A stretch of 64,000 nt of DNA from Thermodesulfovibrionales bacterium (GCA_963715195.1 CAVQRT010000003.1:32001-96000); one strand, 5' to 3'. Shown: positions 38,540 to 59,181, numbered from the stretch's first letter. Numbers and translations: made by a program. Notes: generated by a model from the letters alone, not told the origin.

Positions 38540-38678
38540 ACGTTTCTTTGTATACCTCCTTGTGATTTTTCTGTTATAAGCCTACAGGAATTTTATGAAG
38601 AAATTTCGAAGACACTGTGAAAATATTATGAAGATGCTTGAAAAGCAGGAAAAAACTACAAGCCGCAGCAAAAAATGC

Positions 38679-41645: not shown

Positions 41646-41690
41646 CCTACTTGGGTAGGGTTTACTTACTGATTTTTTTACAGAAACTAT
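41646..41690 (+). promoter_or_regulatory. Palindromic operator + promoter, copy 1
   Basis: CCTACTTGGGTAGG-G-TTTACT-N18-AACTAT upstream of the inhibitor/protease operon. Confidence 0.55.
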
Positions 41691-41769
41691 TTTCAAGATA
41701 CATATGAATACATCTTTTAGTGTTTCTTCGAACTTATTCCAAACTATTTTTTCTGAGTGGCAGGAAGAA

Positions 41770-42232
41770 AATGCAAATCGGAAATGAAAAATGCTCTTCA
41801 ATATCTGCACAAACTGGGTTACAACGAGTTTTCCTCTTTTTTCTTCTGAGTATTGCAATCATCTTTCCATATAGAGGGTTCTGTAATGGAGGAGTAATGA
41901 CAGGCGATGAGATCAGAATTGTTAATGAAAAGGATAATGGGAAAGAAGTCGAAGCCAAAGTCGGAGATGTGATACGGATTGAACTTGAATCATTGGGTAG
42001 TGCCGGATACAAATGGTTTATAGACAATGTAGACGCCAAGTATTTAGAGCTCATATCAGAAAAAACAGAGGCAACTGGAGATAAAGACAAAATAGGATCT
42101 CCTGTTATATCGATATGGCGTTTTAGATTACTTCAAAATGGCTTAACTGAGATCAAGATGTCTCATTATCGTGTGTGGGAAGGAAAGGAAAAGGCATCAG
42201 ATAGTTTTCATATAAAACTAAACATCCATTAA
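41770..42232 (+). CDS. Chagasin/I42 family cysteine protease inhibitor
   Basis: EKDNGKEVEAKVGDVIRIELESLGSAGYKW...IGSP...YRVWE matches the I42 loops (NPTTGYxW, GxG, RPWE); start uncertain. Confidence 0.8.
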
Positions 42233-42246
42233 AAAAGGAGGAGATT

Positions 42247-44433
42247 ATGTTTAGGAAAAAATTAATTGTTTTTGGACTTTTAATGGTTGCCGCTCTCTTT
42301 GTGTTCAGTGCAGTATCTTTTGCTGATGAATTGAGTGAAATCCGGGAAGCCATAAAGGCAAAAAAAGCGAAGTGGGTTGCCGGCAAAACATCAATGATGA
42401 TGCTCTCACCAGAAGAGAGAAGGATGCGTCTTGGTCTTGGTCACTTCAAGGGTATCCCTGAAGATGAGGGCATTCCGTACGAAGAGACATTTACTGCGGT
42501 TCCGGCAACCTTCGACTGGAGGAATATTGATGGAAATGGGAAAAGCTATGTAACCCCCGTCCGGAATCAAAGAAGCTGCGGAAGTTGCTGGGCGTTTGCT
42601 GCTGCGGCCGGACTTGAGTCGTATACTCTCATGACGGAGAATATGCCGAATATCAACCTGGATCTCGGAGAGCAGATACTTATTTCGTGTTATAACACGA
42701 ACGGATGCAGTGGGGGATCACCTTCTGGTGCATCATCTTACATCAAGACCACAGGATTGCCATTGGAGTCATGTTTTCCCTATGAGGCATATGACGCCAA
42801 TGACGGAGGGAACTCGGTTTTCTGCAGTGAAGCATGTGACAACTGGCAGCAGAATACATATAAAATTTTAGCCTACGGCTCCGTATCCAAAAATGTATCT
42901 GCAATCAAGGATGCACTCGTCAGTTACGGTCCTTTGGTGACAACGTTCAGTGTATATTCAGACTTTTACAGTTATAACGGTGGAATCTATTCTTATACCA
43001 CTGGTACGTATCAAGGCGGACATGCGGTACTAATCATAGGATATGATGATGGAAACCAGTGCTTTATCGTAAAAAACAGTTGGGGAACAGGTTGGGGTGA
43101 GGCCGGGTATTTCAGGATTGACTATAGTGAACTTAATACTGCAGTTAATTTTGGCGCTGGTACGCTCACCTATTATGGGTCTCTGGAAGTAGCTTGTTCA
43201 ATTCATGCTGAGTGCGATGACTCAAATGTATGCACAGCGGATGTTTGCATAAATTCAGGAACAGCCGAAGCTTATTGCTCGAATACACCACAGGCAGGAT
43301 CGTGTGATGACGGCTTGTTCTGTACAGTAAGCGATATATGTACAGATGGTTTGTGTAGTGGAGTAGCAAGAGTTTGTTCAGATGGTATAGCATGTACAAC
43401 AGATAGCTGCGATGAGGTAAATAATAATTGTATCCATGCACCTCAAGACTCACTTTGTGATGATGGCTTGTTCTGTAACGGGACAGAGCACTGTGACGCA
43501 ATGAATGACTGTGTGTCAACTGGTGATCCGTGTCCAGCAGGAACAACTTGTAATGAGACTGCAAATACCTGTTATTCAGATGCAGTTTGCGGCGATGGCG
43601 TAGTCGAAGGAATAGAGGAGTGTGATGATAGCAACAGGGCTGACGGCGACTGCTGTTCTTCAAACTGCACGCATGAGGCAAGTGGCAGTTCATGCTCAGA
43701 CGGGGAATTCTGTAACGGCGTTGAGACATGCGATGGTGCAGGGGTATGCCGGGCAGGCATGCCGGTAAGCTGTGATGATGGTGTTGATTGTACAGCTGAT
43801 TCCTGTAACGAAGCCACTAATCAGTGCGATAACACGCCAAATGATGCTGACTGTCCTGATGATGGCTCGTTCTGTAACGGGACAGAGCACTGTGATGCAA
43901 CGGGTGGCTGTCAGTCAACTGGCAATCCCTGTTCAGTGGGCAATGACTTGCAATGAAGAAACAGATATCTGTGACAGGCTGCTGGAGACGGAATATGTGA
44001 AGGACGGCCACTTGAGGACTGTAGCAGTTGTCCTTCTGATTGCCCTGGGAAGAATGTTGGTAAACCAAGCAAAAGATGGTGTTGTGGAGATGGAGATTGC
44101 CAAAGTGATCTGGGCGAAACAGCAACTATTTGCCCGGTAGATTGTGGTACACCGCCGTCACCGCCAGTTTGCGGCGACGGAACCTGTGATCCTAATGAGG
44201 ACACGTGCAATTGTTCAAAAGACTGCGGCGTGCAGGATTCTGTTGAGGTCACTTGCAATGACGGCATCGATAATGACTGTGACAGTTTTATCGACTGCAG
44301 CGACAGTGATTGCACCAGCGATTCAGCGTGCGACGGGCAATGCTCTCAGTTTAAACAACCATGCAATGCCGACTCTGACTGCTGCGCGGGTTTAACGTGC
44401 CATCCTAACAAAGGCTATTGCGATAGTAATTGA
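42247..44433 (+). CDS. Secreted papain-family (C1A) cysteine protease with long Cys-rich repeat tail; frameshifted near 43941-43982
   Basis: AGGAGG RBS; signal peptide; FDWR, NQRSCGSCWAFA, GGHAVLIIGY, KNSWG; Cys repeats continue through track ORFs 43772 and 44230 to TGA 44433. Confidence 0.9.
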
Positions 44434-44462
44434 CATTTGAAATTTTATGATCGAAATAGATG

Positions 44463-44494
44463 AAGGCAGAGTCAGCAATGGCTCTGCCTTTTTT
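44463..44494 (+). terminator. Intrinsic terminator after the protease
   Basis: AAGGCAGAGTCA-GCAA-TGGCTCTGCCTT-TTTT. Confidence 0.85.
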
Positions 44495-44690
44495 GTTTGT
44501 TTCATCATACATTAACGAATTGCTTGTTGCCGTGACAGTCAACAACAAACTTACTTGTGCCTTAGCGAAAAGCTGATAGCATCTTGCCTCACGCAAAAAT
44601 CTACTCGAAATGATACGTTGACTTGACTGTTCTGTTGCGTTACTCTAATGAACGAAAAAAGACTCCATCAAAAGAGGGAACCAGACCAGT

Positions 44691-45278
44691 ATGAAAGATA
44701 AAATCCGCAGGGTATTCGAAGAGAGCATTCAGGTTACGGAAAAATTCCTTGATGAAAAGAATATCGACAGAATCTGTGAGGTTTCAAAGGTCATTGCCGG
44801 CGCGTTCAATGACGGAAAGAAACTGATCCTGTTCGGCAATGGCGGGAGTTCTGCAGATGCCTCCCACATCGCAGCAGAGTTTATCAACCGGTTCAAACGG
44901 GAACGCCCGGGACTTCCGGCTATCGCCCTCAACACCGATATGGCAGTGATAACCTCGATCGCCAATGATTATGATTTTTCCGAGATATTCGCAAAGCAGC
45001 TGAAAGCAATCTCCGAAGAAGGCGATGTTGTCATCGCGATGAGCACCAGCGGGAATTCTCCGAATATCCTGAAGGCAATGGATGTCGCCAAGAAGAAGAA
45101 ACTCGTGACCATTGCTTTTACAGGCCTCAAGGGTGAGAAGTTTGCAGCGAAAGCACAGTATGCCTTTACCGTACCTTCAGATAGTACCCCCCGGATTCAG
45201 GAGACCCACATAACGCTCGGACATGTTATTTGCCAGATGGTTGAGGAAATCCTTTTCGAGGTGCCAAGAAAAAAATAA
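44691..45278 (+). CDS. gmhA: Phosphoheptose isomerase
   Basis: GNGGSSADASHIAAE, ANDY, STSGNS, PRIQETH. Confidence 0.95.
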   Translation: MKDKIRRVFEESIQVTEKFLDEKNIDRICEVSKVIAGAFNDGKKLILFGNGGSSADASHIAAEFINRFKRERPGLPAIALNTDMAVITSIANDYDFSEIFAKQLKAISEEGDVVIAMSTSGNSPNILKAMDVAKKKKLVTIAFTGLKGEKFAAKAQYAFTVPSDSTPRIQETHITLGHVICQMVEEILFEVPRKK

Positions 45279-45294
45279 TGATTCTTTCTGCTTG

Positions 45295-45780
45295 ATGATC
45301 ATTCTCGGGATAGACCCAGGTCTGACAACGACAGGATTCGGCGGAATTCTCTGTAATAATGCCACCCCTTCCCTGCTCACGTGCGGATCCATAAAAACTG
45401 TCCCTCGGGATCATATCTCCCGGAGGCTGTTTCAGATCCACACGGATATCAATACACTCATTCATTCCCTCCGGCCTGATTTGGTAGCAGTTGAGAATGC
45501 GTTCTCGCTCGTGAGGTATCCCAGGGCCGGTATATTATTGGGCGGAGTTTTGGGTATTATATATCTGTCCGTTTTCAACCATAGGGTATCCATGGTTGAA
45601 CTGACGCCGAGAGAAGTAAAGAAGGCCCTGGCAGGCTTTGGTGGAGCAGGGAAAGTGCAGATGAAATCCGCTGTCGAGCGTTTACTGAATATCGACGATA
45701 TACAGTCATCACATGCTTCTGATGCACTCGCTGTTGCGCTGACCGCATTTTACCGGAAAAGTACGAGAGTGAAACGGTGA
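45295..45780 (+). CDS. ruvC: Crossover junction endodeoxyribonuclease
   Basis: ILGIDPG, VAVE, VKKALAGFGGAGK, SDALAVA. Confidence 0.93.
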   Translation: MIILGIDPGLTTTGFGGILCNNATPSLLTCGSIKTVPRDHISRRLFQIHTDINTLIHSLRPDLVAVENAFSLVRYPRAGILLGGVLGIIYLSVFNHRVSMVELTPREVKKALAGFGGAGKVQMKSAVERLLNIDDIQSSHASDALAVALTAFYRKSTRVKR

Positions 45781-46397
45781 TTTCTTACCTCAAAGGAACC
45801 ATGCAAAAGAGTTACGCCCACGATGACAGGATAACACTGATTGTCAACGGCGTTGGGTATGAGATACTGATACCGGCCTTCGTGATGAAGAAGATAAAAC
45901 ACGAAAACCCTGAAGGCAGTGCGCTGGAACTCTTTCTTTCCTATAATCAGACTGAGCGACAACCGAAACCTGTTCTTGTCGGCTTCCAGTCACCTCTGGA
46001 CAAGGAATTTTTCGAGCTCTTTATCTCCGTGGAAGATATCGGTCCAGCCGCAGCGGTTAAAGCTCTCACGAAACCAATAAGAGACATCGCCCGTTCGATC
46101 GAGGATAAAGATACAAAGGCTTTAAAACAGTTAAAAGGAATAGGCGAAAGAAAAGCCGAAAAGATCATTGCAACGCTCAAAGGCAAAGTTGCAAAATATG
46201 CACTTATGCCGGAAGTTGAGATTGCGCCTGAAGTCGTTGAGGACTTCCGGAAAGAAGTAGCGGATGTCCTCGTCAACCAACTCGGTCACAAGCACCTGGA
46301 AGCCCGAACAATGATCGAAGAGGCAATGAAGAGAAATCCGGGGATAAGTTCTTCTGAGGAATTATTCGAGGAAGTTTACCGGGGACAGAAGACATGA
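45777..46397 (+). CDS. ruvA: Holliday junction branch migration protein
   Basis: [28 protein letters not shown]; lies between ruvC and ruvB. Confidence 0.93.
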
Positions 46398-47455
46398 TAC
46401 ACGAAGAATCCAACCAGGCTGATATGCTCCGGGATAATAATCCCCAGGATGAAGAACTGATTTTTTCTTTGCGGCCGGTTCATATTGCAGAGTATATAGG
46501 GCAACGGAATATTGTCGAAACTCTGAATATAGCAATTGAAGCGGCATTGCAAAGGAAAGAAGCGTTGGATCATGTGCTCTTTAACGGGCCCCCGGGGCTC
46601 GGGAAGACAACTCTGGCACATATCATAGCAAACGAGATGGGGACAAAGATTATCACCTCTTCAGGTCCTGCCCTGGAGAAAGGCGGGGATCTCATGGGAA
46701 TTCTTACTCATCTCGAAAGAGGCGACATTCTTTTCATCGATGAAATACACAGGATACCGAAAATTGTTGAGGAATTCCTCTACCCGGCCATGGAAGATTT
46801 TGCGGTGGATTTCATATTCGACAAGGGTGTGCATGCGCGGACCCACCGGTACAGGCTCGAACCGTTCACCCTGATTGGCGCAACGACACGTTCCGGACTT
46901 CTTTCCTCTCCCTTAAGGGAGCGTTTCGGTATCACCCGTGACCTTGATTTTTACGATGAGAGCGATCTCATTCTCATCATAAAGCGTTCCGCGTCGATTC
47001 TTGAGATACCAGTAGATCATGAAGGGGCTTATGAGATAGCCCGCAGGGCACGGGGCACTCCTCGTGTTGCCAACAGGCTCCTGAAAAGGGTCCGTGATTA
47101 TGCCCAGGTAAGAGCCGATGGAAGCATAACGCATGCAGTTGCCAGGGAGGCATTGGCCTTGGAGGGAATAGACGAATTTGGACTGGGAGTAACAGACAGA
47201 AAGCTCCTCAGTACAATCATTTTCAACTACAAAGGCGGCCCGGCCGGGATAGAAGCGCTCGCATCCACTCTGCAAATAGAAACCGACGTCCTGCTTGATG
47301 TCATTGAGCCGTTTTTGCTCAAAACAGGATTCGTTATAAGAACGTCACAGGGAAGAAAGGCCACGGAAAAGGCATACGCCCTTCTTGATATCCCGTTCAA
47401 ACATGAAATGAGTCTGTTCGCGGGCGGCAAAGGCAAACGGGAACCGCAGTCATGA
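46394..47455 (+). CDS. ruvB: Holliday junction branch migration helicase
   Basis: [34 protein letters not shown]. Confidence 0.97.
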
Positions 47456-48039
47456 AGCTCCTCATGCATATCTGCTGTTCAAACTGCTTTCTGTATCCTC
47501 TGCAAGCCCTGTCATCAAGAAATATTGCTATCAGAGGCTTCTGGTACAATCCGAACATCCATCCGTATACTGAATATGCACTTCGTCTGGAATCACTCCG
47601 GCGGCTGCAAAATGAATGGAACCTTGACATTGAATACGCCGACGCGTACGGTCTGAAAGAATTCTTAAGAGCGGTCGTGAATGAGGAGGACAAGAGATGT
47701 TCTGTCTGCTATACCATGCGGCTTGAAGAGACAGCCTCAACAGCAAAGCGAATGGGACTCGATGGGTTCACGACCACACTCCTCGTCAGCCCGTATCAGA
47801 AGTTTGACACCATCGTGAGTATCGGGAAGGAGGCCGGAGAAAAGTATGCAATCCCGTTTTATGCTGAAGATTTCAGACCGGGATGGAAAGAAGGCATGAA
47901 AATATCAAGGGAGCTCGGACTTTACCGGCAGAAGTACTGCGGCTGTATTTATTCTGAAATGGAACGATACACCAAGAAACCTCAGATAGTAGACAAGGGA
48001 AATTTAACACCCAGTATGCTGGTGAAAAACCCCCTTTGA
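47452..48039 (+). CDS. queH: Epoxyqueuosine reductase QueH
   Basis: [42 protein letters not shown]. Confidence 0.9.
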
Positions 48040-48044
48040 CAAAT

Positions 48045-48081
48045 TGTCTTGCTGAGTTTATTTCCCACGCTCAGGGTGACA
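48045..48081. repeat. Degenerate palindromic element related to that at 2778
   Basis: TGTCTTGCTGAG...CTCAGGGTGACA. Confidence 0.4.
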
Positions 48082-48141
48082 CAAAAAGGCACTTTTTCAG
48101 TAACCTTTTAAAACTGACAACTGATAGGGAACAGGAAAATC

Positions 48142-48369
48142 ATGGTTGACGGGATACAAAACGCCGGGAAATTGCTCATTGTTCTCGGGATCATCATCAT
48201 TGCCCTTGGAGGACTGCTGCTCTTTTCTGGGAAAATCCCCTGGATCGGCAGACTGCCCGGTGATATTCTGATTCAAAAAAAACATTATACGGTTTATTTC
48301 CCGCTCGCAACAAGCATTATCATAAGTCTGATTATCACCCTTATTTTTTGGATTTTCGGGAGAAGATAA
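48142..48369 (+). CDS. DUF2905 family small membrane protein
   Basis: IGRLPGDI...YFPLATSIIIS. Confidence 0.88.
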   Translation: MVDGIQNAGKLLIVLGIIIIALGGLLLFSGKIPWIGRLPGDILIQKKHYTVYFPLATSIIISLIITLIFWIFGRR

Positions 48370-49391
48370 TGATAAAATCCTTCTGCAAACAGCATACAAA
48401 ATTCATCATCCTTTGCATGCTTATTTCATTTTGTTTTCTTCATTTTCCCTCGTTCGCTTCAGATTCTTCTGCAAACAGCATCAAAATTCTGATCGTGAAT
48501 GAAATCTATCCAAAAATCCCTTCGAGGAATGAGAAAATTGAAAAACTCGGCTCCGTGCAGGGGGAACTCCTTGTCATGGGGTCGCGCTATGCCGGCAATA
48601 TCGATGTGTGGAAGGGTGAGAACGGTTTGTATATCATCAATGAACTGCCGCTCGAGGAGTATGTCAGGGATGTGGTTGCCGCAGAGATCAGTCCTGAATG
48701 GGATATGGAGGCATTGAAGGCACAGGCCGTTGTATCACGAACATACGCCCTCTATCAAAAGACCAAGAACGGCAATTCCCTGTATCACCTCGCATCATCT
48801 GTCCTCCATCAGGTCTACAAAGGGAAAAATACCGACATGCGAATAGCTTACGCTGTTTCAGCGACAACCGGTGAGGTGCTCACGTTTGACGGCACAATTA
48901 TTGAATCCCTCTATCATTCAACCTGTGGCGGAAAAACAGAAAATCCCGGAGAGGTCTTCGCGAAAAATTATCCGTATATGAAATCCGTTGAATCGAACTG
49001 CGACCTGTCACCATATTCGGTGTGGGAGCGGAATATCAGGCTCGATGAAATAGAAAAAGCCCTCGCTATAGAACATATTCAGGATATCAGTATCGAAGCC
49101 TACACATCCACGAACCGTGTCAGGCAGCTGAGCATAAAATCCGGCTTCGGCATCACCACAGTGAACGCAACCGATTTTAGGAAGGCACTCGGTTGGAACC
49201 GGCTCCCGAGTACAAACTTCACCCTCACGCGCACCGGCAGGGAAATTACCTTCCAGGGAAGGGGCTATGGTCATGGCGTCGGCCTCTGCCAGTGGTGTAT
49301 GCTGAGAATGGCACGTGAAGGGAAAAAATATGCGGAAATTCTGTCTTTTTTCTACCCCGGTACGACAATCCAGCTGTATGAAAACCGCTGA
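48369..49391 (+). CDS. SpoIID/LytB domain protein
   Basis: LEEYVRDVVAAE, ALKAQAVVSRTYA, YHSTCGG, GYGHGVGLCQ, FYPG. Confidence 0.92.
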   Translation: MIKSFCKQHTKFIILCMLISFCFLHFPSFASDSSANSIKILIVNEIYPKIPSRNEKIEKLGSVQGELLVMGSRYAGNIDVWKGENGLYIINELPLEEYVRDVVAAEISPEWDMEALKAQAVVSRTYALYQKTKNGNSLYHLASSVLHQVYKGKNTDMRIAYAVSATTGEVLTFDGTIIESLYHSTCGGKTENPGEVFAKNYPYMKSVESNCDLSPYSVWERNIRLDEIEKALAIEHIQDISIEAYTSTNRVRQLSIKSGFGITTVNATDFRKALGWNRLPSTNFTLTRTGREITFQGRGYGHGVGLCQWCMLRMAREGKKYAEILSFFYPGTTIQLYENR

Positions 49392-50454
49392 TTTCGACTA
49401 TGTTCTTCCCGAATTCCTGATCGCAGAAAAACCCCTAAAAGAGCGCTCTGTTTCCAGGCTTCTCGTGCTCCACCGGAACGGAAGGACAGAACACCGGCAT
49501 TTTTTCGATCTTCCCTCATACCTTGAGCAGGGAGATACCCTCATCATCAACAACACAAAGGTTTTTCCAGCGCGGCTCACCGGCACAAAAAAAAACGGTA
49601 AAACCCTGGATATCCTCCTCGTGAAAGAAGAATTCCCCGGTACCTGGGAGGTACTTTCGAAGGGAAATTTTTCCGGCAGACTGAGGATATCAGAAGAACT
49701 CGAGGTAGATCTGCAGAGGGGGACATCGGCCCGCTTTCAGTATTCCGGGGATCTTATGGATCTCATATGGAAATATGGGGATATGCCTCTCCCACCCTAT
49801 ATCGGGCGTTCACCTGATCAGTCAGACAAGCAGGCGTACCAGACAGTTTATGCCACAAAAGAAGGTTCCATCGCTGCGCCTACCGCCGGCCTTCATTTCA
49901 CCGGACCCCTTCTCGAAGCTATTGCCTCGAAGGGGGTCAAAATCAGGGAACTCACCCTGCATGTTGGTGTCGGCACATTCAGACCGGTACGAACAAAAAT
50001 GGCAGAAGATCATTGTATGGAAAGGGAATACTTTGAGATCTCAAAGGCAATGATTGCTGAGATACGGGAAGCAAAAGCTGCCAGGAAACGTGTTATTGCA
50101 GTCGGGACAACAACAACGCGTTCCCTGGAGGGGTATTTCAGCGGCAGATTCAACAACGGTTCAAAAATACGATCCTCCCCTGTTTCGCACCCGGAGTCGG
50201 CAGCGCATGATACTCGCGGAGAAGAGATGATGCCTTCCCGCTTCATTGCGGGCACTACAGATATCTTTATCTCGCCGGGGTATGCATTTCAGGTTATCGA
50301 TTCTCTCGTCACCAACTTCCATCTGCCTCGCTCGACTCCCCTTATGCTGGTATCTGCCCTCGCAGGAAGGGAAATGATCCTCACTGCATACAACGAGGCG
50401 ATCTCGAACGGGTATAGATTTCTCTCATATGGTGATGCTATGCTTATCTTATGA
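49378..50454 (+). CDS. queA: tRNA preQ1 S-adenosylmethionine ribosyltransferase-isomerase
   Basis: FDYVLP, PLPPYI, AAPTAGLHF, LHVGVGTF, TNFHLP, FLSYGDAMLI. Confidence 0.96.
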   Translation: MKTADFDYVLPEFLIAEKPLKERSVSRLLVLHRNGRTEHRHFFDLPSYLEQGDTLIINNTKVFPARLTGTKKNGKTLDILLVKEEFPGTWEVLSKGNFSGRLRISEELEVDLQRGTSARFQYSGDLMDLIWKYGDMPLPPYIGRSPDQSDKQAYQTVYATKEGSIAAPTAGLHFTGPLLEAIASKGVKIRELTLHVGVGTFRPVRTKMAEDHCMEREYFEISKAMIAEIREAKAARKRVIAVGTTTTRSLEGYFSGRFNNGSKIRSSPVSHPESAAHDTRGEEMMPSRFIAGTTDIFISPGYAFQVIDSLVTNFHLPRSTPLMLVSALAGREMILTAYNEAISNGYRFLSYGDAMLIL

Positions 50455-51176
50455 AACGGGGTGATGTTCGGAAGCCCTCTTCGGTCTTTTATATCGGGAA
50501 GGGATTGATTGTTGCGTCGATCGTGATTACCGCTTCCCTCGGTTTTCTGCTCGGTTTTTTTGTCGGGAAAAAATTCCAACCTCTATCGGAAACCCAATCG
50601 GCAAGCATGGTCCTCCCTGAAGGACCGGACCAGTTTCCTCAGGAAGCACCGGGGAAGGAATCGTTGCCGCAACAGCCTGAATTATCCCGGGAGCAGAATG
50701 ATAAACCGCTGAATGAGCAGCAGGAGACCACGCCCGTCAAAGCGCTTCGGGACACGGGTACAATCCCTTCAGAAAAACGTCATGATAAGCCGCAATCGAC
50801 GCCTTCATCGAAGACAACACACGTGCAGGAAACAAAGCCGGCGTCCGGGTCCTCTCAGACGAAACAAACAGCTATCTCCACAGACAAACTACAGCCCACA
50901 GTGACTTCCGTGACACGGAAATATACGGTTCAAATCGGTGCTTTCAAAAACCCTGAGGAGGCAGATGCACTCAGGAACAGAATGAGCAAGAAAGGATACA
51001 AGGCATTCGTCACTACAGCGAAGACGAAAAAACAGGAAATATTGCACAAGGTAATGGTGGGCACTTACACGACCAGGAAAGAAGCAGAGGTTTTATCGAT
51101 TAAACTCAAGAATTCCGAAGGTTTGCGCACGTTCGTCACTTTTTTCATGCAGGAGGGGACAACACGTCACCGGTAG
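50451..51176 (+). CDS. SPOR domain cell-division protein (DedD/FtsN-like)
   Basis: N-terminal TM helix, low-complexity linker, YTVQIGAFKN...HKVMVG. Confidence 0.88.
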   Translation: MKRGDVRKPSSVFYIGKGLIVASIVITASLGFLLGFFVGKKFQPLSETQSASMVLPEGPDQFPQEAPGKESLPQQPELSREQNDKPLNEQQETTPVKALRDTGTIPSEKRHDKPQSTPSSKTTHVQETKPASGSSQTKQTAISTDKLQPTVTSVTRKYTVQIGAFKNPEEADALRNRMSKKGYKAFVTTAKTKKQEILHKVMVGTYTTRKEAEVLSIKLKNSEGLRTFVTFFMQEGTTRHR

Positions 51177-52129
51177 AAATCGTATTCGACAGCGAGAAAG
51201 AGCCTGACCTCCTTTATGGCAAGCACGAAAGGGTCCTCAGAATTATCGGGGAAACGCTGGGAATTGTTGTTTCACAGCGGGGCAACAAGATTTTTTTGCA
51301 GGGAGATGATGTGTCAGTCCACAAGGCTGAAAACATTATCAGGGATCTTCGGTCCATAAGCGCCGAAGGATATAACCTCAGCCCTGAAGATATCCGTTAT
51401 GCCCTGAGGTCTATCGCATCCGACGAGCAGATATCAATAAAGGATCTCTTTCTCAATAATATACCCATTTCTTCAAAAAAGCGGTTCATCATACCAAAGA
51501 CGGAAACCCAGAGATTGTATATAGAAAGCATCAGGAATTTCGATATTGTAATAGGCATAGGGCCTGCGGGAACAGGGAAAACGTATCTTGCTATGGCGAT
51601 GGCGGTCAATGCCTTTCTCAAAAAACAGATAAGCAGGATCGTCCTTGCTCGGCCTGCGGTAGAGGCAGGGGAAAAGCTCGGATTCCTTCCCGGCGATATG
51701 TTCGAAAAAGTGAATCCTTACCTGAGACCGCTCTATGATGCCCTGTTCGACATGATGGAGGCTGAAAAAGTCGTAAAACTGATCGATCGCGGTACAATCG
51801 AGATTGCCCCCCTGGCGTTTATGAGGGGAAGAACCCTTAATGACTCCTTCATTATCCTCGATGAAGCACAAAATACCACTTCGGAGCAGATGAAGATGTA
51901 CCTGACCCGTCTTGGGTTTAATTCGAAAACTGTTATAACCGGGGATATCACCCAGATAGACCTTCCGCAGGGAAGGTCTTCCGGGCTTATAGAGGCAGAA
52001 AAGATCCTGAATAATATCGAGGGAATCAAAGTTATTTATTTTTCAGAGCGGGATGTCGTAAGGCACAAGCTTGTCCAGAAAATTATTCAGGCCTACGAAA
52101 AATATGAAAAACGGACAGCAGAAGAATAA
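51164..52129 (+). CDS. phoH: PhoH family ATPase (YbeZ); probable ACG start
   Basis: GPAGTGKTYLA, RPAVEAGEKLGFLPG, DEAQN, RHKLV. Frame extends 5' with a PhoH-like N-terminus to ACG 51164, 7 nt after AGGAGG. Confidence 0.93.
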   Translation, partial: TSPVEIVFDSEKEPDLLYGKHERVLRIIGETLGIVVSQRGNKIFLQGDDVSVHKAENIIRDLRSISAEGYNLSPEDIRYALRSIASDEQISIKDLFLNNIPISSKKRFIIPKTETQRLYIESIRNFDIVIGIGPAGTGKTYLAMAMAVNAFLKKQISRIVLARPAVEAGEKLGFLPGDMFEKVNPYLRPLYDALFDMMEAEKVVKLIDRGTIEIAPLAFMRGRTLNDSFIILDEAQNTTSEQMKMYLTRLGFNSKTVITGDITQIDLPQGRSSGLIEAEKILNNIEGIKVIYFSERDVVRHKLVQKIIQAYEKYEKRTAEE

Positions 52130-53708
52130 ACCTCGCCGCCTTTCATCACTTCTCAAGATGTTCCTCGACGGGAACCCGATAAAAGGAGAAGCCCCACCGG
52201 TGCGGCTCAGCAGACGGGATACCTTCATCAGAATATACTTTATTTTCATCTGTGGGCTTGTCGCCTCTGTCTCAATCCAGTCGAACATCGGTATTGAACA
52301 GATGCTCGGGGGATTTTTCATTTCATGCCTCCTCATGTTCATTTTTTACCGTGACATCATGCGATATAAGCCTGCATATACAAAAAAATACACCATGCTG
52401 TTTCTCCTCGGCCTGCTCCTTGTCGGGACACTCCTGCTGGGAAGATTGTTTGCCTATCTCCTCATCAATCTCTCAAAAGGTCTTGAATACCAGACGTTAG
52501 ACAGTTCCCTGTATGGAATTCCGATCCCTGTAGGCGCGATGCTGGTCTCTCTGCTGTTCGATTTTCACACCGCTATTACCTTTTCCTTCGCGGTCAGCTT
52601 GCTCACCGGTCTCTGGCTCCAGGACGCATCATTCACCGTATATGCCTTTGTCGGAAGCATTACAGCAGCCTTCAGCGTGATACGATGCAAGAAACGGTCA
52701 GGAATCCTGAAGGGGGGGGGATTTATTATTGCAGCAAATGTCATAACCCTCATCATCATTCTTCTCTTCCGGGGTGAGCTTTTCACGATAAAGGCACCAC
52801 CCGCTATCCTGTTTAGTGCTCTCTGCGGCATGAGCGTTGCAGCCGTTGTTTCATTAATTCTGCCGGTGATTGAGTACTTTTTTAAAGTTACAACTGATAT
52901 CAGCCTCCTTGAACTGCTTGATCTCAATCAACCCCTTATGAAAAACCTTATGGTAACTGCACCTGGGACATATCACCACAGCGTCATCGTAGGGAACCTT
53001 GCGGAATCAGCCGCTGAGATCGTTGGTGCAAACCCACTGCTCGCCCGGGTCAGCGCCTACTACCATGACATCGGCAAAATTAAGATGCCTGAATATTTTG
53101 TCGAAAATCAGAGCAGTACCGTGAGTAAACACGATAAATTAACACCCCATATGAGCAGTATGATCATTACAAACCACGTCAAAGAAGGGATTGAGCTTGC
53201 AAGGACCTACAAGCTTCCCGAGCCGATTATTGAGATCATCGAGCAGCACCACGGCACCATGCTCATCAGCTATTTCTATCAAAAAGCAAAAGAACGGGAA
53301 GGGAACGGCACACCGGCTGAGCAGGATTATCGGTACCTAGGGCCAAAGCCCCAGACCCGTGTAGCTGCCCTTGTCATGATGGCAGATAGCGTCGAGGCTG
53401 CATCACGGGTTCTTGCTGATCCTACGCCAGCAAGAATTGCTTCGTTGGTTGACCGGATCATCAATCATATATTCCTCGAGGGGCAGCTTGATGAGTGCGA
53501 ACTGACCCTGAAAGACATTCACGAAATCAAGAAGCGCTTTACGTACATTCTGACCGGCATATTCCATAAACGGGTAGATTACCCGGGATTCGATTTTAGC
53601 AATGAAGGTCTCTATAAAGAATCAGCAAAGACTCATAAGGGTAAACACGCAGAAAACAGCAAGGCTTCTCAGGAAAATGCTCAGTCTGCTCCGTCTCCCA
53701 AGAGCTGA
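52104..53708 (+). CDS. Multi-TM HD (HDIG) phosphohydrolase, PgpH-like
   Basis: APGTYHHS, YYHDIGK, YFVENQ, QHHGT, MADSVEAA; sits in a phoH-HD-ybeY arrangement. Confidence 0.9.
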   Translation: MKNGQQKNKPRRLSSLLKMFLDGNPIKGEAPPVRLSRRDTFIRIYFIFICGLVASVSIQSNIGIEQMLGGFFISCLLMFIFYRDIMRYKPAYTKKYTMLFLLGLLLVGTLLLGRLFAYLLINLSKGLEYQTLDSSLYGIPIPVGAMLVSLLFDFHTAITFSFAVSLLTGLWLQDASFTVYAFVGSITAAFSVIRCKKRSGILKGGGFIIAANVITLIIILLFRGELFTIKAPPAILFSALCGMSVAAVVSLILPVIEYFFKVTTDISLLELLDLNQPLMKNLMVTAPGTYHHSVIVGNLAESAAEIVGANPLLARVSAYYHDIGKIKMPEYFVENQSSTVSKHDKLTPHMSSMIITNHVKEGIELARTYKLPEPIIEIIEQHHGTMLISYFYQKAKEREGNGTPAEQDYRYLGPKPQTRVAALVMMADSVEAASRVLADPTPARIASLVDRIINHIFLEGQLDECELTLKDIHEIKKRFTYILTGIFHKRVDYPGFDFSNEGLYKESAKTHKGKHAENSKASQENAQSAPSPKS

Positions 53709-54087
53709 GATAAGCCTCCTGTTCGTCAACGACAGGAGGATGAGACTCCTGAACCGCCGTTACCGCGGAGTTGACCGGACAACGGATGTTCTGTCGTTCC
53801 CGCAATATAGCGCTGAGGAGCTGAAGGCAGAAAGCAGGAAATGTTCGCAGGTATCCACTTCAGATCTTCACACTTCATCCGGAGTGCTGCCGCTTGGTGA
53901 CATCGTTATCAATCTGCCACTTACAAAACGGCAGGCTCATGAAAACAGTCTCTCATTCGATGAAGCATTGAAGCAGCTCCTTATACACGGTCTTCTCCAC
54001 CTCATTGGGTACGACCATGAACAGGGCAGGAATGCAGCAGGGAAAATGCGAAAAAAATCACGGGAGGTTTTTGAAAAACTCCGGTAA
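53602..54087 (+). CDS. ybeY: rRNA maturation RNase YbeY
   Basis: LNRRYRG, TDVLSF, LGDIVI, IHGLLHLIGYDH. Confidence 0.95.
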   Translation: MKVSIKNQQRLIRVNTQKTARLLRKMLSLLRLPRAEISLLFVNDRRMRLLNRRYRGVDRTTDVLSFPQYSAEELKAESRKCSQVSTSDLHTSSGVLPLGDIVINLPLTKRQAHENSLSFDEALKQLLIHGLLHLIGYDHEQGRNAAGKMRKKSREVFEKLR

Positions 54088-54164
54088 AATCAGAATCAGG
54101 AGCACCTATCCTTTGCGATAGGAATTCTAACAGACCGCGATCACCTCATGAAAGAAACGGTAGA

Positions 54165-55679
54165 ATGACACCGAAGAAGTCTCCCGATCAAAACCCGATA
54201 GAACCCCGGCAGAAGGGTAAAGCCACTGATCTGATCCTCGGTTCCGAAGAGATGGATGAGAGGTACAGAGCCCTCTTTGACAGTTCACTGTGCAGTGTCT
54301 TCATCCATGATCTGAAAGGCACCTTTCTCGATGCGAATGAGACGGCGCTGAGGATTCTGGGATATACCAAAAAGGACCTGCCTGCTCTTTCGATCTCGAC
54401 GATTCTTGACAAGGATCACGTGCCAGTCGCCAAAAAACGCATCGAAGACATCATCAAATTCGGATCTGCAAAAGACCCTTTCCTTTATAGGGTGAGAAAG
54501 AAAAACGGGGATTTTGTCTGGATGGAAGTCGTCTCTACCCTTATCCATCGCAATGGGAAACCGTTCGCAATACAGGGTATGGCATGGGAGGTAACCGAAC
54601 AGATCAAGATCAGAGATGCGTTGCGGAGAAGCGAAGAACAGTACAGGACCATGATAGAAACCATGAACGAGGGACTCTCTGTTCTCGACAAGAACGAGAA
54701 CATGATCCTGGTCAACAACCGTTTCTGTGCCATGACGGCATACCACAGGGATGAACTGCTCGGCAAGCATGTTTCCCTAATCTTGGATAAAGAGAACCAG
54801 AAGATATTGCGGAATCAGTGGTCATTGCGGAAAAAAGGCATTGCAGACACATATGAAATAATGCTGACCAGAAAAGACAGGGAAAAAGTCGATACCCTTG
54901 TTGCACCATGCCCGATGTTCGACGATGAAGGAAGATTGAGCGGCAGTCTTGGTATCTTTACTGATATCTCCAGACTCAAGCAGACTGAAAGGGAACTGCT
55001 GTCGTATCAGGCAAGGCTCCGTTCCCTCGCCTTGGAGATGTCGATGGTCGAAGAACGGGAACGCCGTTACATCACGATAGAATTGCAGGATAATCTCGGC
55101 CGGACGTTATCGTACTGCAGGGACCAATTGAAAGCAATTCAGGAGAAGTCGCTCCCTCATGACATACGGACATCTTTGAACGAAATCACCGGTCTCGTTG
55201 AGCGGAACATCCATTATGCGAAGACCCTGACATACGAATTCAGCACGCAGATCCTCTATGAAAAAGGACTGGAAGCTGCTCTACAGTGGCTCGGGAATCA
55301 CTTCCGTGAACTGCATGCCTTAACGTTCCATTTTGAAGATGATCTGAAACCGAAACCGTTGTCAGACGAAACGAATATACTTCTCTACCAGGCGGTGAGG
55401 GAATTATTCCTGAATATTGTCAGGCACGCTTATGCAAAAAACGTTACCGTATCGTTCGAGAGGGATTACAAGAATATCCGGATACATGTGCACGACGACG
55501 GAGTCGGGTTTGATATGTCCAGAATAGGATCCTATCAAGACAAGAAGGAAATGTTCGGCCTTTTCAGTATCTATGAACGGCTCAAATATCTGGGAGGACA
55601 TGTTCATGTTGAATCGGGCCCCGGAGAGGGCACCCGGTTTACCCTCGTAGCCCCGCTCAAATCCCCAGGGAGAAAATAG
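54165..55679 (+). CDS. Cytoplasmic PAS-PAS histidine kinase, HisKA_3/NarL-partner type, H-box His replaced by Gln
   Basis: Two PAS domains; ERERRYITIELQDNLG; ELFLNIVRHA, DDGVGFD, FGL, GEGTRF. Confidence 0.85.
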   Translation: MTPKKSPDQNPIEPRQKGKATDLILGSEEMDERYRALFDSSLCSVFIHDLKGTFLDANETALRILGYTKKDLPALSISTILDKDHVPVAKKRIEDIIKFGSAKDPFLYRVRKKNGDFVWMEVVSTLIHRNGKPFAIQGMAWEVTEQIKIRDALRRSEEQYRTMIETMNEGLSVLDKNENMILVNNRFCAMTAYHRDELLGKHVSLILDKENQKILRNQWSLRKKGIADTYEIMLTRKDREKVDTLVAPCPMFDDEGRLSGSLGIFTDISRLKQTERELLSYQARLRSLALEMSMVEERERRYITIELQDNLGRTLSYCRDQLKAIQEKSLPHDIRTSLNEITGLVERNIHYAKTLTYEFSTQILYEKGLEAALQWLGNHFRELHALTFHFEDDLKPKPLSDETNILLYQAVRELFLNIVRHAYAKNVTVSFERDYKNIRIHVHDDGVGFDMSRIGSYQDKKEMFGLFSIYERLKYLGGHVHVESGPGEGTRFTLVAPLKSPGRK

Positions 55680-55743
55680 GGATACTCAGTCTGCAGCGCT
55701 TTTTTAGACGCAGAAAGCGCGGCTTTTTCAGGGTTGTATTTCT

Positions 55744-55911
55744 TTATAAGGAATTATCAGGTATTTTTGAACTGCTCATTTCTCGCGACTTGTTTAATCT
55801 TATCTTCATCAATCTTAAAAGGAGATCATATCGTTCCTTCACTCCGAGAACAAAATATAATGGTGACTCCATAAGTATGGAAATGTATTCTTTTTCAATC
55901 TCGCTATCCAT
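55744..55911 (-). CDS. 55-aa hypothetical protein
   Basis: MDSEIEKEYISILMESPLYFVLGVKERYDLLLRLMKIRLNKSREMSSSKIPDNSL; AAGGA upstream; directly downstream of operator/promoter copy 2. Confidence 0.6.
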   Translation of the reverse strand: MDSEIEKEYISILMESPLYFVLGVKERYDLLLRLMKIRLNKSREMSSSKIPDNSL

Positions 55912-55933
55912 AATGATCACGTTCCTTAATGAT

Positions 55934-55977
55934 ATTTTGGGAAATTCTGCTGGTTAAGTGAATCCTACCTAAGTGGG
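55934..55977 (-). promoter_or_regulatory. Palindromic operator + promoter, copy 2
   Basis: CCCACTTAGGTAGG-A-TTCACT-N17-CAAAAT. Confidence 0.6.
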
Positions 55978-56258
55978 GATAAACATTCTTTCTTGCTGGC
56001 TATGATTTGGGATGTGGCATTTATCAAAGAAGTGAAAGCATCATTGTTACAGGAAAAAAGAAATCGTTTCCTATTATTACAGAAAATAATGAAGCGAACC
56101 CAGGATGAGGTATCCTTGAGCTCTTTTGTTCAAATTGGTGTTTTGGTAGATGCTTTAGGCTTCCCTTCACTTGGGGCATGCTCACCACATCTAACACCTA
56201 CACCCTTCATATCTGACTTGATTCTCAGGCCTCATCTTCTGGGTATCGCATTAATGTT

Positions 56259-56302
56259 ATTATGATAACAATAGATCAGGTAATCAATCCTACCTGAGTA
56301 GG
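56259..56302 (-). promoter_or_regulatory. Palindromic operator + promoter, copy 3
   Basis: CCTACTCAGGTAGG-A-TTGATT-N17-CATAAT. Confidence 0.7.
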
Positions 56303-56390
56303 TTATATCTCTGAAATAATTATCATCTCATTTGTTATCACCTGAATACTCCAACGATTGGTCGATGTCATCCAGCTTTAAGGAACAAGC

Positions 56391-56423
56391 AAGAACTCCC
56401 TGTGCTCTTGGCGCAGGGTTCTT
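56391..56423 (-). terminator. Hairpin downstream of the CBS gene
   Basis: AAGAACTCCCTGTGC-TCTTG-GCGCAGGGTTCTT. Confidence 0.5.
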
Positions 56424-56464
56424 AACTTCGGGAAGAAGTCGATTAGCTATTGAAACGAGCGAAC

Positions 56465-56857
56465 TCAAGGATTGCTCAACGCAATCCGGAGGATAGCAGA
56501 TCTTGAAATTATTCCCACAAGGCGGAGACCATCGGTAACAGGTATTCTCAGTATCCCGTTCTCAAGCATAATATCCAATACATCGCTAAGTGGCGCATCG
56601 ACATTTACTGTAATGGGATTTCTCTGCATAACATCTTCTACTATGAGTTTATCGAGATCTTTTCCTTCGCGGATTTGGTCTAATAAGTCATGTTCAGTGA
56701 TGACGCCGATAACTCTTTCTTCCTCATCAATAACTGGCATGCCACTAAAACGACCTGAAACCATTTGCAAAGCACTGTCTCTTGCGGAGGCCCTTTTCTT
56801 CGTGGAAATAACAGGTATTTTTATAACATCTTTTGCTTCTAACTTTGCAATATCCAC
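56465..56857 (-). CDS. CBS domain pair protein
   Basis: SGMPVID..VIGVITEHD; RIPVTD..LVGIISRS. Confidence 0.9.
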   Translation of the reverse strand: MDIAKLEAKDVIKIPVISTKKRASARDSALQMVSGRFSGMPVIDEEERVIGVITEHDLLDQIREGKDLDKLIVEDVMQRNPITVNVDAPLSDVLDIMLENGILRIPVTDGLRLVGIISRSAILRIALSNP

Positions 56858-57009
56858 ATTTTATTCCCCCTTATTTTTTTATTGATTATCTCATGAAACA
56901 TCAATCATTACAATAGGGTGTTATTTTGAATATTTCAGGATGGGGTTTGCATAAAAAGCACATTCTCTCAAAAGTGCATCGTTTCCCCCATCTTGCTAAG
57001 TAGAGCAAT

Positions 57010-57729
57010 TTAAGGCTTTTTTAAAAGAAGCCTTCTTTTTCCTTCAGGCAGCCTCTTCGAACCTTCTCTGAGAGTAAGCCCGGAGGCTCTGTCCTTGATC
57101 CTCATCAGGAAATCGAATGCTGCTTCGGGATCTGCTTTGGCTATTTCCCGGATGCACCAGCCGATAGCCTTCCTGATAAAAAATTCCTTCTCCGAAACCA
57201 TCCTTTCGGCAAAATCGTAGAAAAGTTGCCTGTCTCCCTTGCCCTTTCTAAACATGAGTATTTGTGAAATAAGCGAGGCGCGTTTCATCCAGAAATTCTC
57301 TGACCTGCTCCATTTATTTAGAAATGCATATGCCTTCTTGTCCATCTCCAGCACTGTGCCAACCAGATGGATCGAGATATCGTCAACCAGATCCCAAGTA
57401 GGCGATTCCATAAGCATTTTCTCAAGCATAGATACCATGCCGATATCAAGATACTCCGGGAAGAACTGTAATAACCTAAGAGCAAGCCTCTTTTCGTCGT
57501 GGTACTCGGAAGCCCAAAGTTTTCCCGCAAGTTCAATAACAAGTTTGTAGCTGGCCCCCGGGTTTTCCTTTCTGAACTCTTTGGCCACCTTATCCGCATA
57601 TGGAAGTGATGTACCAAAGAATTTGAAAGGGCTTTTCAGGTAGCGTTTCTCCTGAACGGCTCTTTCGGAGCTACCGCCGGATTTCATTTTCTCTCTGAGG
57701 ATAGAGAGGGATACAGCAACAGACTTCAT
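57010..57729 (-). CDS. AlkD-like DNA alkylation repair protein
   Basis: TWDLVD, NFWMKRAS, EFFIRKAIGWCIRE, LTLREGSK; start could be 57765. Confidence 0.88.
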   Translation of the reverse strand: MKSVAVSLSILREKMKSGGSSERAVQEKRYLKSPFKFFGTSLPYADKVAKEFRKENPGASYKLVIELAGKLWASEYHDEKRLALRLLQFFPEYLDIGMVSMLEKMLMESPTWDLVDDISIHLVGTVLEMDKKAYAFLNKWSRSENFWMKRASLISQILMFRKGKGDRQLFYDFAERMVSEKEFFIRKAIGWCIREIAKADPEAAFDFLMRIKDRASGLTLREGSKRLPEGKRRLLLKKP

Positions 57730-58013
57730 GGATTGTGTCTCCTTTGCCAGCCTTCTACTCCTCATAATTATACCACCTCTTTGTTTGCAACCTTTCAGAA
57801 AGAAAAGGTTAAACTGTAAAGGCCCCGGCTATTATCCTTTGTACTGTACATAGATCGATCAGGCTGCCGCCACAAGGACTTCAGGAAGGAAGATTTGGAT
57901 ATGGGATATAATTCATAATGGTTGACAAAGATATAGAGATTTAGACTTGTATTGTATGTTTATATTTGAAAAACGATTGTTCTCTAAAAGTAAACGAGGA
58001 ATAATTTTTTTTA

Positions 58014-58042
58014 TTGACATATAAAAATTATTGACATATTAT
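58014..58042 (+). promoter_or_regulatory. Near-consensus sigma70 promoter of the Lys-rich micropeptide
   Basis: TTGACA-N17-TATTAT. Confidence 0.55.
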
Positions 58043-58099
58043 TTTCTTAAGTGTTGTTTGAATTTCTATCAACAACAAGAAAGGTAGGTGAAAGAGTTT

Positions 58100-58156
58100 A
58101 TGCCAGTAAAGAAAAAAGCTGCTGCAAAAAAGAAGACCGCAAAAAAGAAGAAATAA
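58100..58156 (+). CDS. 18-aa Lys/Ala-rich micropeptide
   Basis: AAGGTAGGTG RBS; MPVKKKAAAKKKTAKKKK-TAA; flanked by its own promoter and terminator. Confidence 0.65.
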   Translation: MPVKKKAAAKKKTAKKKK

Positions 58157-58188
58157 GTTTCCCTCGACACACATGCACACAATCTTTT

Positions 58189-58220
58189 GGGCTGGGGAAG
58201 ATTTTCTCCAGCCTTTTTTT
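58189..58220 (+). terminator. Intrinsic terminator
   Basis: GGCTGGGGAA-GATT-TTCTCCAGCC followed by T7. Confidence 0.8.
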
Positions 58221-58479
58221 ATGGTCTTCTCTTCTTGCGGTCTTTAGGTATTATAAAACTCCATTCCTAAGAAAATTTCAAGGTATTTTTATAACTCTCT
58301 GTAAATTCACAATTAATTAATGGTACGGATATTGCTATATTCTGGCTGTACAACTCAACCGAAGACTAATCCACAAAAAGCTCCATCAACAGGAGTTGGG
58401 AATGCTTTTCAAGCAACAACTTCATGGAGAAAAGTCTCCGGGTTGATTCTTCCTTGTCTTCGCATTTCAATATTATCTT

Positions 58480-58938
58480 CTAATTGTATGTATTCCCCTG
58501 AAGGCTTCCCATAAAAGCGTCATACATAGTACCCTCCACATTAGCCTCCAATAATCTTATGATTTCGGGTATTTCGCCCTTTATAACATCAATGAATTGC
58601 ATTCCAGCAATAAAAAGTGGGGTAATATCACCGTTGGCTTCCTTCACACTATCCGCTAATAAAGCCCAAACAACCAAAGCTTTAACAAAGACTGATTTGT
58701 CCTTATACCCTATTTTTAACGCATAACTCTTGCCGATATTTATAAACTTATCTACCATCACTAAAGCACCACCACTGCTGATGTTCATTACTTTCACCCG
58801 GCTGGCTGACGGTATATCGCAATCAACTCCCATATTCTCTACATTGAATCTCCTATGCTGTCTCTTCTCGTTCATACCATTTTCCGAGTACTCATCGTCC
58901 GCACGGCAAACTGACTCAGCGCTGTTATCTTGTATCAT
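58480..58938 (-). CDS. PilZ domain protein
   Basis: EKRQHRR (RxxxR), NISSGG (D/NxSxxG), AGMQF; AAGGAG RBS before ATG 58938. Confidence 0.85.
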   Translation of the reverse strand: MIQDNSAESVCRADDEYSENGMNEKRQHRRFNVENMGVDCDIPSASRVKVMNISSGGALVMVDKFINIGKSYALKIGYKDKSVFVKALVVWALLADSVKEANGDITPLFIAGMQFIDVIKGEIPEIIRLLEANVEGTMYDAFMGSLQGNTYN

Positions 58939-58959
58939 TTTATCTCCTTCCTTTTGATT

Positions 58960-59003
58960 ATTATTTCGATGGCTGCATTTACAATCAATCCTACCCAAGT
59001 AGG
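58960..59003 (-). promoter_or_regulatory. Palindromic operator + promoter, copy 4
   Basis: CCTACTTGGGTAGG-A-TTGATT-N17-AATAAT. Confidence 0.7.
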
Positions 59004-59037
59004 ATGGACGCTCCCAAGGCTATTCGTATAATAAGAG

Positions 59038-59097
59038 TACATTTTTCACTCTTTTCTCAAGCCTCCCATACTTTATGGGGGGCTTCATTTTCTTTTT
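59038..59097 (+). ncRNA. Candidate ~60-nt sRNA
   Basis: TGGACG-N16-TATAAT (59005-59032), then a CU-rich tract and hairpin AAGCCTCCCATA-CTT-TATGGGGGGCTT with U-rich tail. Confidence 0.35.
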
Positions 59098-59137
59098 ACC
59101 TTATCAACAGCAAGCTGCAATCAATAAGTTATATCCA

Positions 59138-59181
59138 CCTACTCAGGTAGGATTGATTACCAGGATGGAAAGAAGCAGAAT
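59138..59181 (+). promoter_or_regulatory. Palindromic operator + promoter, copy 5
   Basis: CCTACTCAGGTAGG-A-TTGATT-N17-CAGAAT. Confidence 0.7.

Follow-up and report, generated by a model that had tools for sequence, protein, structure and literature searches.

NarL is a regulator with a LuxR/FixJ-type helix-turn-helix (HTH), and according to PMC10853779 its dimer activates the yeaR promoter of Escherichia coli while bound to an inverted repeat that has its centre at -43.5 and directly precedes the -35 hexamer, as a non-canonical form of class II activation. VpsT of Vibrio cholerae, also a LuxR-type HTH protein, regulates genes of cyclic di-GMP (c-di-GMP) and biofilm formation, and according to PMC8754643 it activates an operon for a diguanylate cyclase from a neighbouring palindrome, which has a C-N4-G core. 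In VqmA and EL222 (7dwm, 6ugl and 3p7n), the LuxR-type HTH follows a PAS domain. The window analysed here, i.e., the whole stretch of 64,000 nucleotides from a Thermodesulfovibrionales bacterium (GCA_963715195.1 CAVQRT010000003.1:32001-96000), contains five copies of a palindrome, CCYACTYRGGTAGG, each standing directly in front of a -35-like hexamer. An undescribed DNA-binding protein probably binds at these palindromes, and the candidate for it is a PAS-LuxR protein encoded on another contig of the same genome, here called B.

All five copies are exact matches (Table 1) and are followed, after 1 nt, by TTTACT, TTCACT, TTGATT, TTGATT and TTGATT, respectively; a stretch of 25 bp is identical between copies 3 and 5, so that the positions, the spacing and the identity reported in the initial annotation are all confirmed. 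At two mismatches or fewer, CCYACTYRGGTAGG gives 9 strand-matches in the window, compared with a mean of 1.07 and a maximum of 5 in shuffled sequences, and none of the 100 shuffles reaches 9. The consensus is corrected to CCTAC-N4-GTAGG, in which the spacer is loose, and occurs genome-wide in the window's own genome (G000; 2.81 Mb, 46% G+C), which holds 14 exact dyads. A position weight matrix was then trained on 54 sites from relatives only, selected on the dyad and ATTGA alone. The scan of G000 with this matrix, a check that the initial annotation had proposed, returned 21 oriented hits of at least 16 bits on 18 dyads (three of them read both ways), including all five window copies, while the reversed genome returned none. 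The copies belong to an oriented promoter set, and a real regulon is very probable. As for the location of the copies in AT-rich accessory DNA, AT-richness holds for most of the sites but not for some, the G+C content within 1 kb of the 21 sites being 0.38-0.47 compared with 0.463 for the genome.

Such a dyad might also be the end of a mobile element, a repetitive extragenic palindrome (REP)-type repeat or an RNA hairpin instead of a protein site. GTAG-tagged REP repeats do exist, and a phylum-wide search was dominated by a similar-looking REP-type repeat whose loop is TTTC/GAAA. In G000, however, no common sequence extends beyond the core independently of gene context: the flanks of the dyads are alike solely between paralogous gene pairs, which argues against a miniature inverted-repeat transposable element or a REP. 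Moreover, the promoter spacing is fixed, the sites are oriented towards genes, mismatches in the arms go without compensating changes, and the motif tracks a transcription factor, so that the mobile-element, repeat or hairpin reading is largely refuted and retains almost no credibility. A LexA-type box, whose core is AC-N4-GT, was rejected as well, because no SOS-type gene is found among the annotated targets.

The positions downstream of the -35 were unselected in training, and they are informative about the promoter. In the 54 sites from relatives, A occupies -11 in 49, A occupies -9 in 51 and T occupies -7 in 41, while -12 shows no preference (T in 15/54); position -1 is a pyrimidine in 44/54 and +1 a purine in 47/54, i.e., a pyrimidine-purine start. 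The -35 logo is TTGAYT, near the consensus, the -10 consensus is nAWAMT, and nAnnnT lies at a spacer of 17 nt in 40/54 sites. From the unselected -10 and the pyrimidine-purine start, the dyad centre is placed at -43.5 relative to the predicted start. Among the 21 oriented hits of G000, nAnAnT is found at a spacer of 16 or 17 nt in 18 and at a spacer of 18 nt in none, compared with 61/2268 at flanking positions. The spacer of 17 nt with a weak -10, as first described, therefore stands, but the 18 nt assigned to copy 1 does not: GAAACT at a spacer of 16 nt fits better than AACTAT and is more likely its -10. A -35/-10 spacing of 16-17 nt with the site directly upstream of the -35 is the layout of an activator-dependent sigma70 promoter, in agreement with the activator geometry proposed from the abutting dyad, and judging from this layout the regulator very likely acts as an activator at these promoters.

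The opposite action has also to be considered, in which B would be a repressor whose extended site, AATCCTAC-N4-GTAGGATT, overlaps the first -35 bases and blocks RNA polymerase until a ligand releases B. The ATT/AAT flank is symmetric in the distant homologues described below, and the footprint can accordingly extend into the -35, which is itself close to consensus. But the position is fixed at -43.5 and never lies between the promoter elements or over the -10, the rarity of T-12 is what is expected of activator-dependent promoters, and the left flank in Thermodesulfovibrionales sites is CC rather than AAT. Repression is consequently regarded as improbable.

G000 contains 10 LuxR-HTH genes, and one kind of LuxR gene, B, repeatedly adjoins the dyad in relatives. 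B (G000:C31:322261-322806(+), outside the window) is a protein of 181 aa with a PAS fold fused to a LuxR HTH, i.e., the architecture of VqmA and EL222. Its HTH matches PF00196 (GerE/LuxR) with 65.7 bits against a cut-off of 23.5 and aligns with NarL 1je8 (Z 9.9, root-mean-square deviation (rmsd) 2.1, 64 residues aligned), and its N-terminus models as PAS and aligns with 4ew7 (Z 10.4, rmsd 2.5, 93 residues aligned). The top structural matches of the predicted structure (pLDDT 86.5) are EL222, CviR and VqmA. The identity of B with VqmA and EL222 is 15-19%, and B of G000 has no Cys, which excludes LOV photochemistry. The operators of VqmA and EL222 likewise differ from the dyad; VqmA also activates a regulatory RNA. 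The NCBIfam model of CsgD (cut-off 250) gives B only 47.3 bits, over the HTH alone. VpsT has a receiver-like domain, and E. coli CsgD is a related comparison. A search of the ESM Atlas returned generic GerE clusters only. In B no Response_reg match is found, so that of the LuxR/NarL-type regulator proposed initially the LuxR-type HTH reader remains, while the NarL-type protein with a receiver does not. NarL reads a 7-2-7 site (PMC10853779) and has a phosphorylated receiver with a kinase, whereas B has a PAS domain and the logo is a 5-4-5 dyad. VpsT differs in turn by its degenerate 10-bp box (PMC8754643), compared with the strict 14-bp dyad in a fixed promoter position that goes with B.

The distribution of B was compared with that of the site, taken as CCTACNNNNGTAGGATTGA at one mismatch or fewer, over 257 Thermodesulfovibrionales genomes. 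All 37 B-positive genomes have at least one site and 32 of them at least two; among the 220 B-negative genomes, 192 have no site, 23 have one and 5 have at least two. Contrasts within genera (g1, g19, g40, g35, g105, g100 and g91) mostly track B. In addition, the two are physically linked: a site at one mismatch or fewer is present in 21/44 full-length B loci, and in 19/44 a site (two mismatches or fewer) follows the B gene at a distance of 16-337 nt on the same strand, compared with 0 in the reversed control. No conserved motif rises above shuffles in 43 regions upstream of B. The full-length homologues carry Thermodesulfovibrionales or unassigned Nitrospirota record titles. Taken together with the fold, this co-occurrence makes B the likely reader of the dyad.

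Another LuxR/NarL-type protein could read the dyad, above all the VpsT/CsgD-like receiver-LuxR protein A (G000:C7:207813-208436), alone or as a heterodimer with B. The central 10 bp of the dyad fit the degenerate T-box of VpsT, whose key bases are C at -3 and G at +3 (PMC8754643), but many dyads would. Among 41 genomes searched, those family members that are rich in the motif have A, and the A-like match is best in three B-negative, motif-positive genomes. On the other hand, G001, G008, G021, G022 and G024 all have orthologues of A and no site at one mismatch or fewer, G037 has B and 6 sites (two mismatches or fewer) and no A, and no EQTVKSHC helix was found with a dyad nearby. Protein A does not track the motif across genomes and was rejected as the regulator, and the reading has little probability. 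As an observation in its own right, A is an atypical receiver-LuxR gene that follows queD and precedes a PilZ gene rich in Cys (G000:C7:207261-208436, L008), with close orthologues in 16/24 family genomes, and it may be a second regulator linked to c-di-GMP, with a site of its own.

The initial annotation had placed the adjacent HisKA_3 kinase in the pathway, that is, a two-component system of this kinase and a NarL-type response regulator. The kinase gene lies 285 nt from copy 2, its orthologues occur in 3/4 B-positive genomes tested and not in the B-negative G001, and receiver proteins are among the targets. But its H-box His is replaced by Gln, the resulting ELQD recurs in 2/3 orthologues (the third falls outside the H-box pattern used), the three orthologue loci lack the dyad, as does the kinase gene itself, and no orthologue was found in the B-positive G166. 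There is no Pfam HisKA_3 match, B has no receiver to phosphorylate, and each of the four G000 regulators that are clearly of NarL type stands beside a large sensor gene of its own, the cross-genome profiles covering B and A. The two-component version is very improbable, and the kinase is probably not the input of the circuit. It adjoins a YbeY-like gene in G000 and in the same place in two relatives, and may be a pseudokinase.

The pairing of the B helix and the dyad extends beyond the order. Distant homologues of a long form (GAF-like + PAS + HTH) carry the helix EQTVKDHL, and in 18/31 of their loci, which were retrieved with a peptide pattern rather than with the DNA motif, a dyad lies beside the gene; 25 of the 31 were examined in detail, and the other 6 gave no match under a stricter pattern. 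By record title, these loci come from Geobacteraceae, Syntrophales, Nitrospinota, Accumulibacter, Thiodiazotropha and others. Their dyad variant, usually with a TTTC/GAAA spacer, faces genes of large secreted lipoproteins, PEP-CTERM or kelch-PKD proteins (L166-L196), and the GAF-like part has a conserved Y..YY...DP pattern. In a survey of helices, the regex of which misses many HTH types, a dyad is nearby for 32/70 EQT[VI]KDH helices compared with 3/40 other helices, the latter three being a B variant or genes adjoining B; three of the counted hits (L011-L013) had been fetched because of the motif, which weakens the contrast. At L071 (G009), L276, L288 and L292, a variant dyad ending in GAGGG lies near PAS-LuxR relatives with EYTVKDHI or EMTVKDHM (no helix was found in L288), and covariation of helix and motif is possible there. 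The phylum-wide search for the long-form site was dominated by the unrelated REP-like repeat, and a LuxR helix was nearby in 5/25 loci only; this repeat, with its TTTC/GAAA-loop hairpin (L268-L275, L283-L287), is multi-copy in many Nitrospirota genomes and is unrelated to the regulon.

The first genes behind the dyads of G000 fall into several classes. The GGDEF class comprises a receiver-GGDEF protein, two GAF-GGDEF proteins, and DUF6982 followed by MASE-PAS-GGDEF-EAL; the PilZ class comprises PilZ-TPR, PilZ-PilZ and the window's weak PilZ; and the receiver class comprises five receiver proteins in which no DNA-binding domain was found, one of them under two promoters. The remaining ones are DnaJ-TPR, three 55-60-aa paralogues, TPR-RodZ_C, an 88-aa unknown, the I42/papain pair and a 6S-like RNA. 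The PAS-GGDEF gene downstream of the C27 dyad (G000:C27:3302-4274) is in two frames, which indicates a frameshift or an assembly error. In relatives, of 22 first-downstream open reading frames selected at motif loci, 11 are PilZ and 4 GGDEF (15/22 together), 3/22 being near-duplicates from one genome; the link to c-di-GMP effectors drawn in the initial annotation is therefore stronger than was supposed. The secreted protease, by contrast, is tied to the regulon in G000 alone, since an I42 homologue is present in 1/5 motif-rich relatives and its upstream DNA lies off the contig. The 55-aa protein behind copy 2 belongs to a small unannotated family, two further G000 paralogues of which also follow an exact dyad, as do 3/10 homologues in relatives. 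The receiver protein behind copy 5 was rejected as the regulator and is counted as a target, because no DNA-binding domain was found in it by Pfam. Small proteins of the GSU3473 family are dyad targets in relatives (L011:8994-9206 by NCBIfam match, L015:4806-5000 by resemblance only).

Copy 3 had been thought to face a non-coding stretch; instead, a 6S-RNA-like gene lies there, recognised by its Rfam match, rod fold and homologues. 6S RNA (SsrS, RF00013) is a rod of about 160 nt whose ends are paired and which has an unpaired region inside and a conserved apical region. The window RNA has the same plan, with covariation in addition, and close paralogues pass the gathering score; it differs in being an extra paralogue behind a regulator-specific promoter. 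The closing stem begins 3 nt after the predicted +1, the rod fold has a minimum free energy z of -3.96, and two-sided changes occur in 12/33 consensus pairs of 26 sequences (a count made with no shuffle control). 6S matches are found in 19/20 homologue loci, 3 of them above gathering, the best reaching up to 57 bits; the dyad-linked orthologues score 25.5-33.2 bits. The DNA behind copy 3 is conserved in 25/61 genomes, often in several copies, some matches consisting of the promoter alone. Among 27 extracted 6S-like copies, 3 have a dyad upstream and 24 have none, and the exact dyad-to-6S pattern occurs in 5/257 genomes of 3 genera, all of them B-positive. In a tree of the 6S copies (FastTree, midpoint root), four of the five dyad-linked copies form one clade with a support of 0.98, and the fifth stands elsewhere with weak support. 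Two further 6S-like RNAs of G000, at C2:172132-172290 and C3:294989-295147, have no dyad; they score 36-38 bits, below gathering, and 6S is therefore probably under-annotated in Thermodesulfovibrionales. G004 seemingly has tandem partial 6S-like copies.

Several points weigh against the regulon as drawn here. The B gene of G000 has no adjacent site. The B-negative genomes G020, G157, G214, G218 and G228 (85-93% complete) have 2-4 sites, and none of them yielded a B in a looser search; five B-positive genomes have one site only at one mismatch or fewer. The Fisher p of about 1e-30 for the co-occurrence overstates it, because kin are not independent; similarly, the likeness of flanks between paralogous pairs means that a few G000 sites are duplicates and not independent. 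The regulon covers part of the c-di-GMP network of G000: GGDEF proteins are 3 of about 17 as first genes (5 including second genes), and 2/21 PilZ-hit genes, plus 2 weak ones, are under a dyad, domain hits having been merged into genes for these totals. The window 6S copy is below the Rfam gathering score; at that threshold the window has 0 matches, and the 6S match appears at the E-value threshold only. Finally, one metatranscriptome (share 0.09), which consists of contigs without start sites or levels, leaves the 6S-like gene uncovered and is uninformative.

Table 1. Dyads, promoter elements and genes of the window (coordinates counted from its first letter)
Feature	Position	Strand	Details
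Dyad copy 1 (CCTACTTGGGTAGG)	41646..41659	+	-35 TTTACT 41661-41666; probable -10 GAAACT 41683-41688, spacer 16; predicted +1 about 41695; 24.3 bits
Chagasin/I42 peptidase inhibitor, first gene after copy 1	41720..42232	+	Pfam PF09394, E 6.7e-17
Papain-family C1 peptidase with Cys-rich acidic repeats	42247..43956	+	PF00112, E 6.6e-52; TIGR02232
PAS-PAS-HATPase kinase-like protein	54165..55679	+	H-box ELQD, no His; no Pfam HisKA_3 match
55-aa protein behind copy 2	55744..55911	-	No family matched in Pfam/NCBIfam searches
Dyad copy 2	55964..55977	-	-35 TTCACT 55957-55962; -10 CAAAAT 55934-55939; predicted +1 55927; 22.1 bits
6S (SsrS)-like RNA paralogue, third copy in G000	56094..56249	-	Rfam RF00013, E 2.6e-4, 29.8 bits, below gathering score 46.4
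Dyad copy 3	56289..56302	-	-35 TTGATT 56282-56287; -10 CATAAT 56259-56264; predicted +1 56252; 27.4 bits
PilZ-like protein behind copy 4	58480..58938	-	152 aa from ATG with ribosome-binding site; PF07238, E 2.4e-4, 21.8 bits, just below cut-off 22.5
Dyad copy 4, (-) reading (probably bidirectional)	58990..59003	-	-35 TTGATT 58983-58988; -10 AATAAT 58960-58965; predicted +1 58953; 31.3 bits for (-), 26.2 for (+)
Dyad copy 4, (+) reading	59005-59010 and 59027-59032	+	Promoter-like arrangement: TGGACG 59005-59010, 16 nt, TATAAT 59027-59032
Dyad copy 5	59138..59151	+	-35 TTGATT 59153-59158; -10 CAGAAT 59176-59181; predicted +1 59188; 30.0 bits
Receiver-domain protein behind copy 5	59233..59895	+	PF00072 only

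Two other features of the window are worth recording. Two tandem HtrA/DegP-type trypsin-PDZ proteases are encoded at 37073-40139, upstream of a YchF-like GTPase gene and copy 1. A 45-bp hairpin element at 56382-56426, in the spacer before a CBS gene, is cleanly skipped in three DNA runs, and near-identical copies lie on several other contigs, some of them apparently paired ends about 150-550 nt apart; it resembles a small non-autonomous element of IS200/IS605 type.

In the model as a whole, which is considered reasonably probable, CCTAC-N4-GTAGG would be the operator of B, a one-component factor with an N-terminal PAS fold and a LuxR-type HTH carrying the recognition helix EQTVKDHL. A dimer of B would bind tail-to-tail at -43.5, just upstream of the near-consensus -35 TTGAYT, and would recruit sigma70-type RNA polymerase to promoters whose -10 (nAWAMT) usually lacks T-12. 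The output of B would be a part of the c-di-GMP network, made up of diguanylate cyclases, PilZ proteins and one GGDEF-EAL protein, together with receiver proteins that stand alone and small proteins, to which some lineages would add an extra 6S RNA that damps housekeeping sigma70 transcription, and G000 the secreted inhibitor/papain pair. The B regulon probably serves to switch cells into a sessile state or one of slow growth. A wider proposal is offered tentatively and may well not hold: an undescribed, cross-phylum LuxR-type family with EQTVKDHL would read CC(T/C)AC-N4-GT(A/G)GG. In Desulfobacterota, Nitrospinota, Nitrospirota and Proteobacteria its long GAF-PAS-HTH form would control secreted and surface proteins locally, possibly in response to a diffusible signal, and in Thermodesulfovibrionales a GAF-less form would serve as a master switch for the synthesis and the readers of c-di-GMP and for a dedicated 6S paralogue, thereby tying a sessile life to a general shut-down of housekeeping transcription.

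A full-text literature search gave no account of the motif CCTACTTTCGTAGG, of AATCCTAC/GTAGGATT or of a CCTAC/GTAGG LuxR palindrome, and, among the matches listed, no matching description of the regulation of a 6S paralogue or of 6S in Nitrospirota. No described regulon of this kind was found for Thermodesulfovibrionales either, in a search outside which supplements, most subscription papers and curated databases such as RegPrecise lay. Thermodesulfovibrionales are sulfate reducers of sediment and subsurface, known mostly from metagenome assemblies; the window stretch itself occurs in metagenomes of estuary, marine and other sediment and of seawater, 13 runs holding at least half of its words. 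For these organisms a complete testable set is now available, that is, a candidate regulator, operator, promoter position and targets, which comes down to one 181-aa protein and short promoter fragments. The pairing of helix and motif moreover allows targets to be predicted for the 107 long-form homologues (E 1e-20 or better), which carry generic names only and are otherwise unannotated. If the model is true, a 6S paralogue under a specific activator beside c-di-GMP genes would illustrate how duplicates of a 6S gene come to have separate jobs, and an extra 6S RNA and c-di-GMP genes under one regulator would point to a lifestyle switch in sulfate-reducing Nitrospirota.

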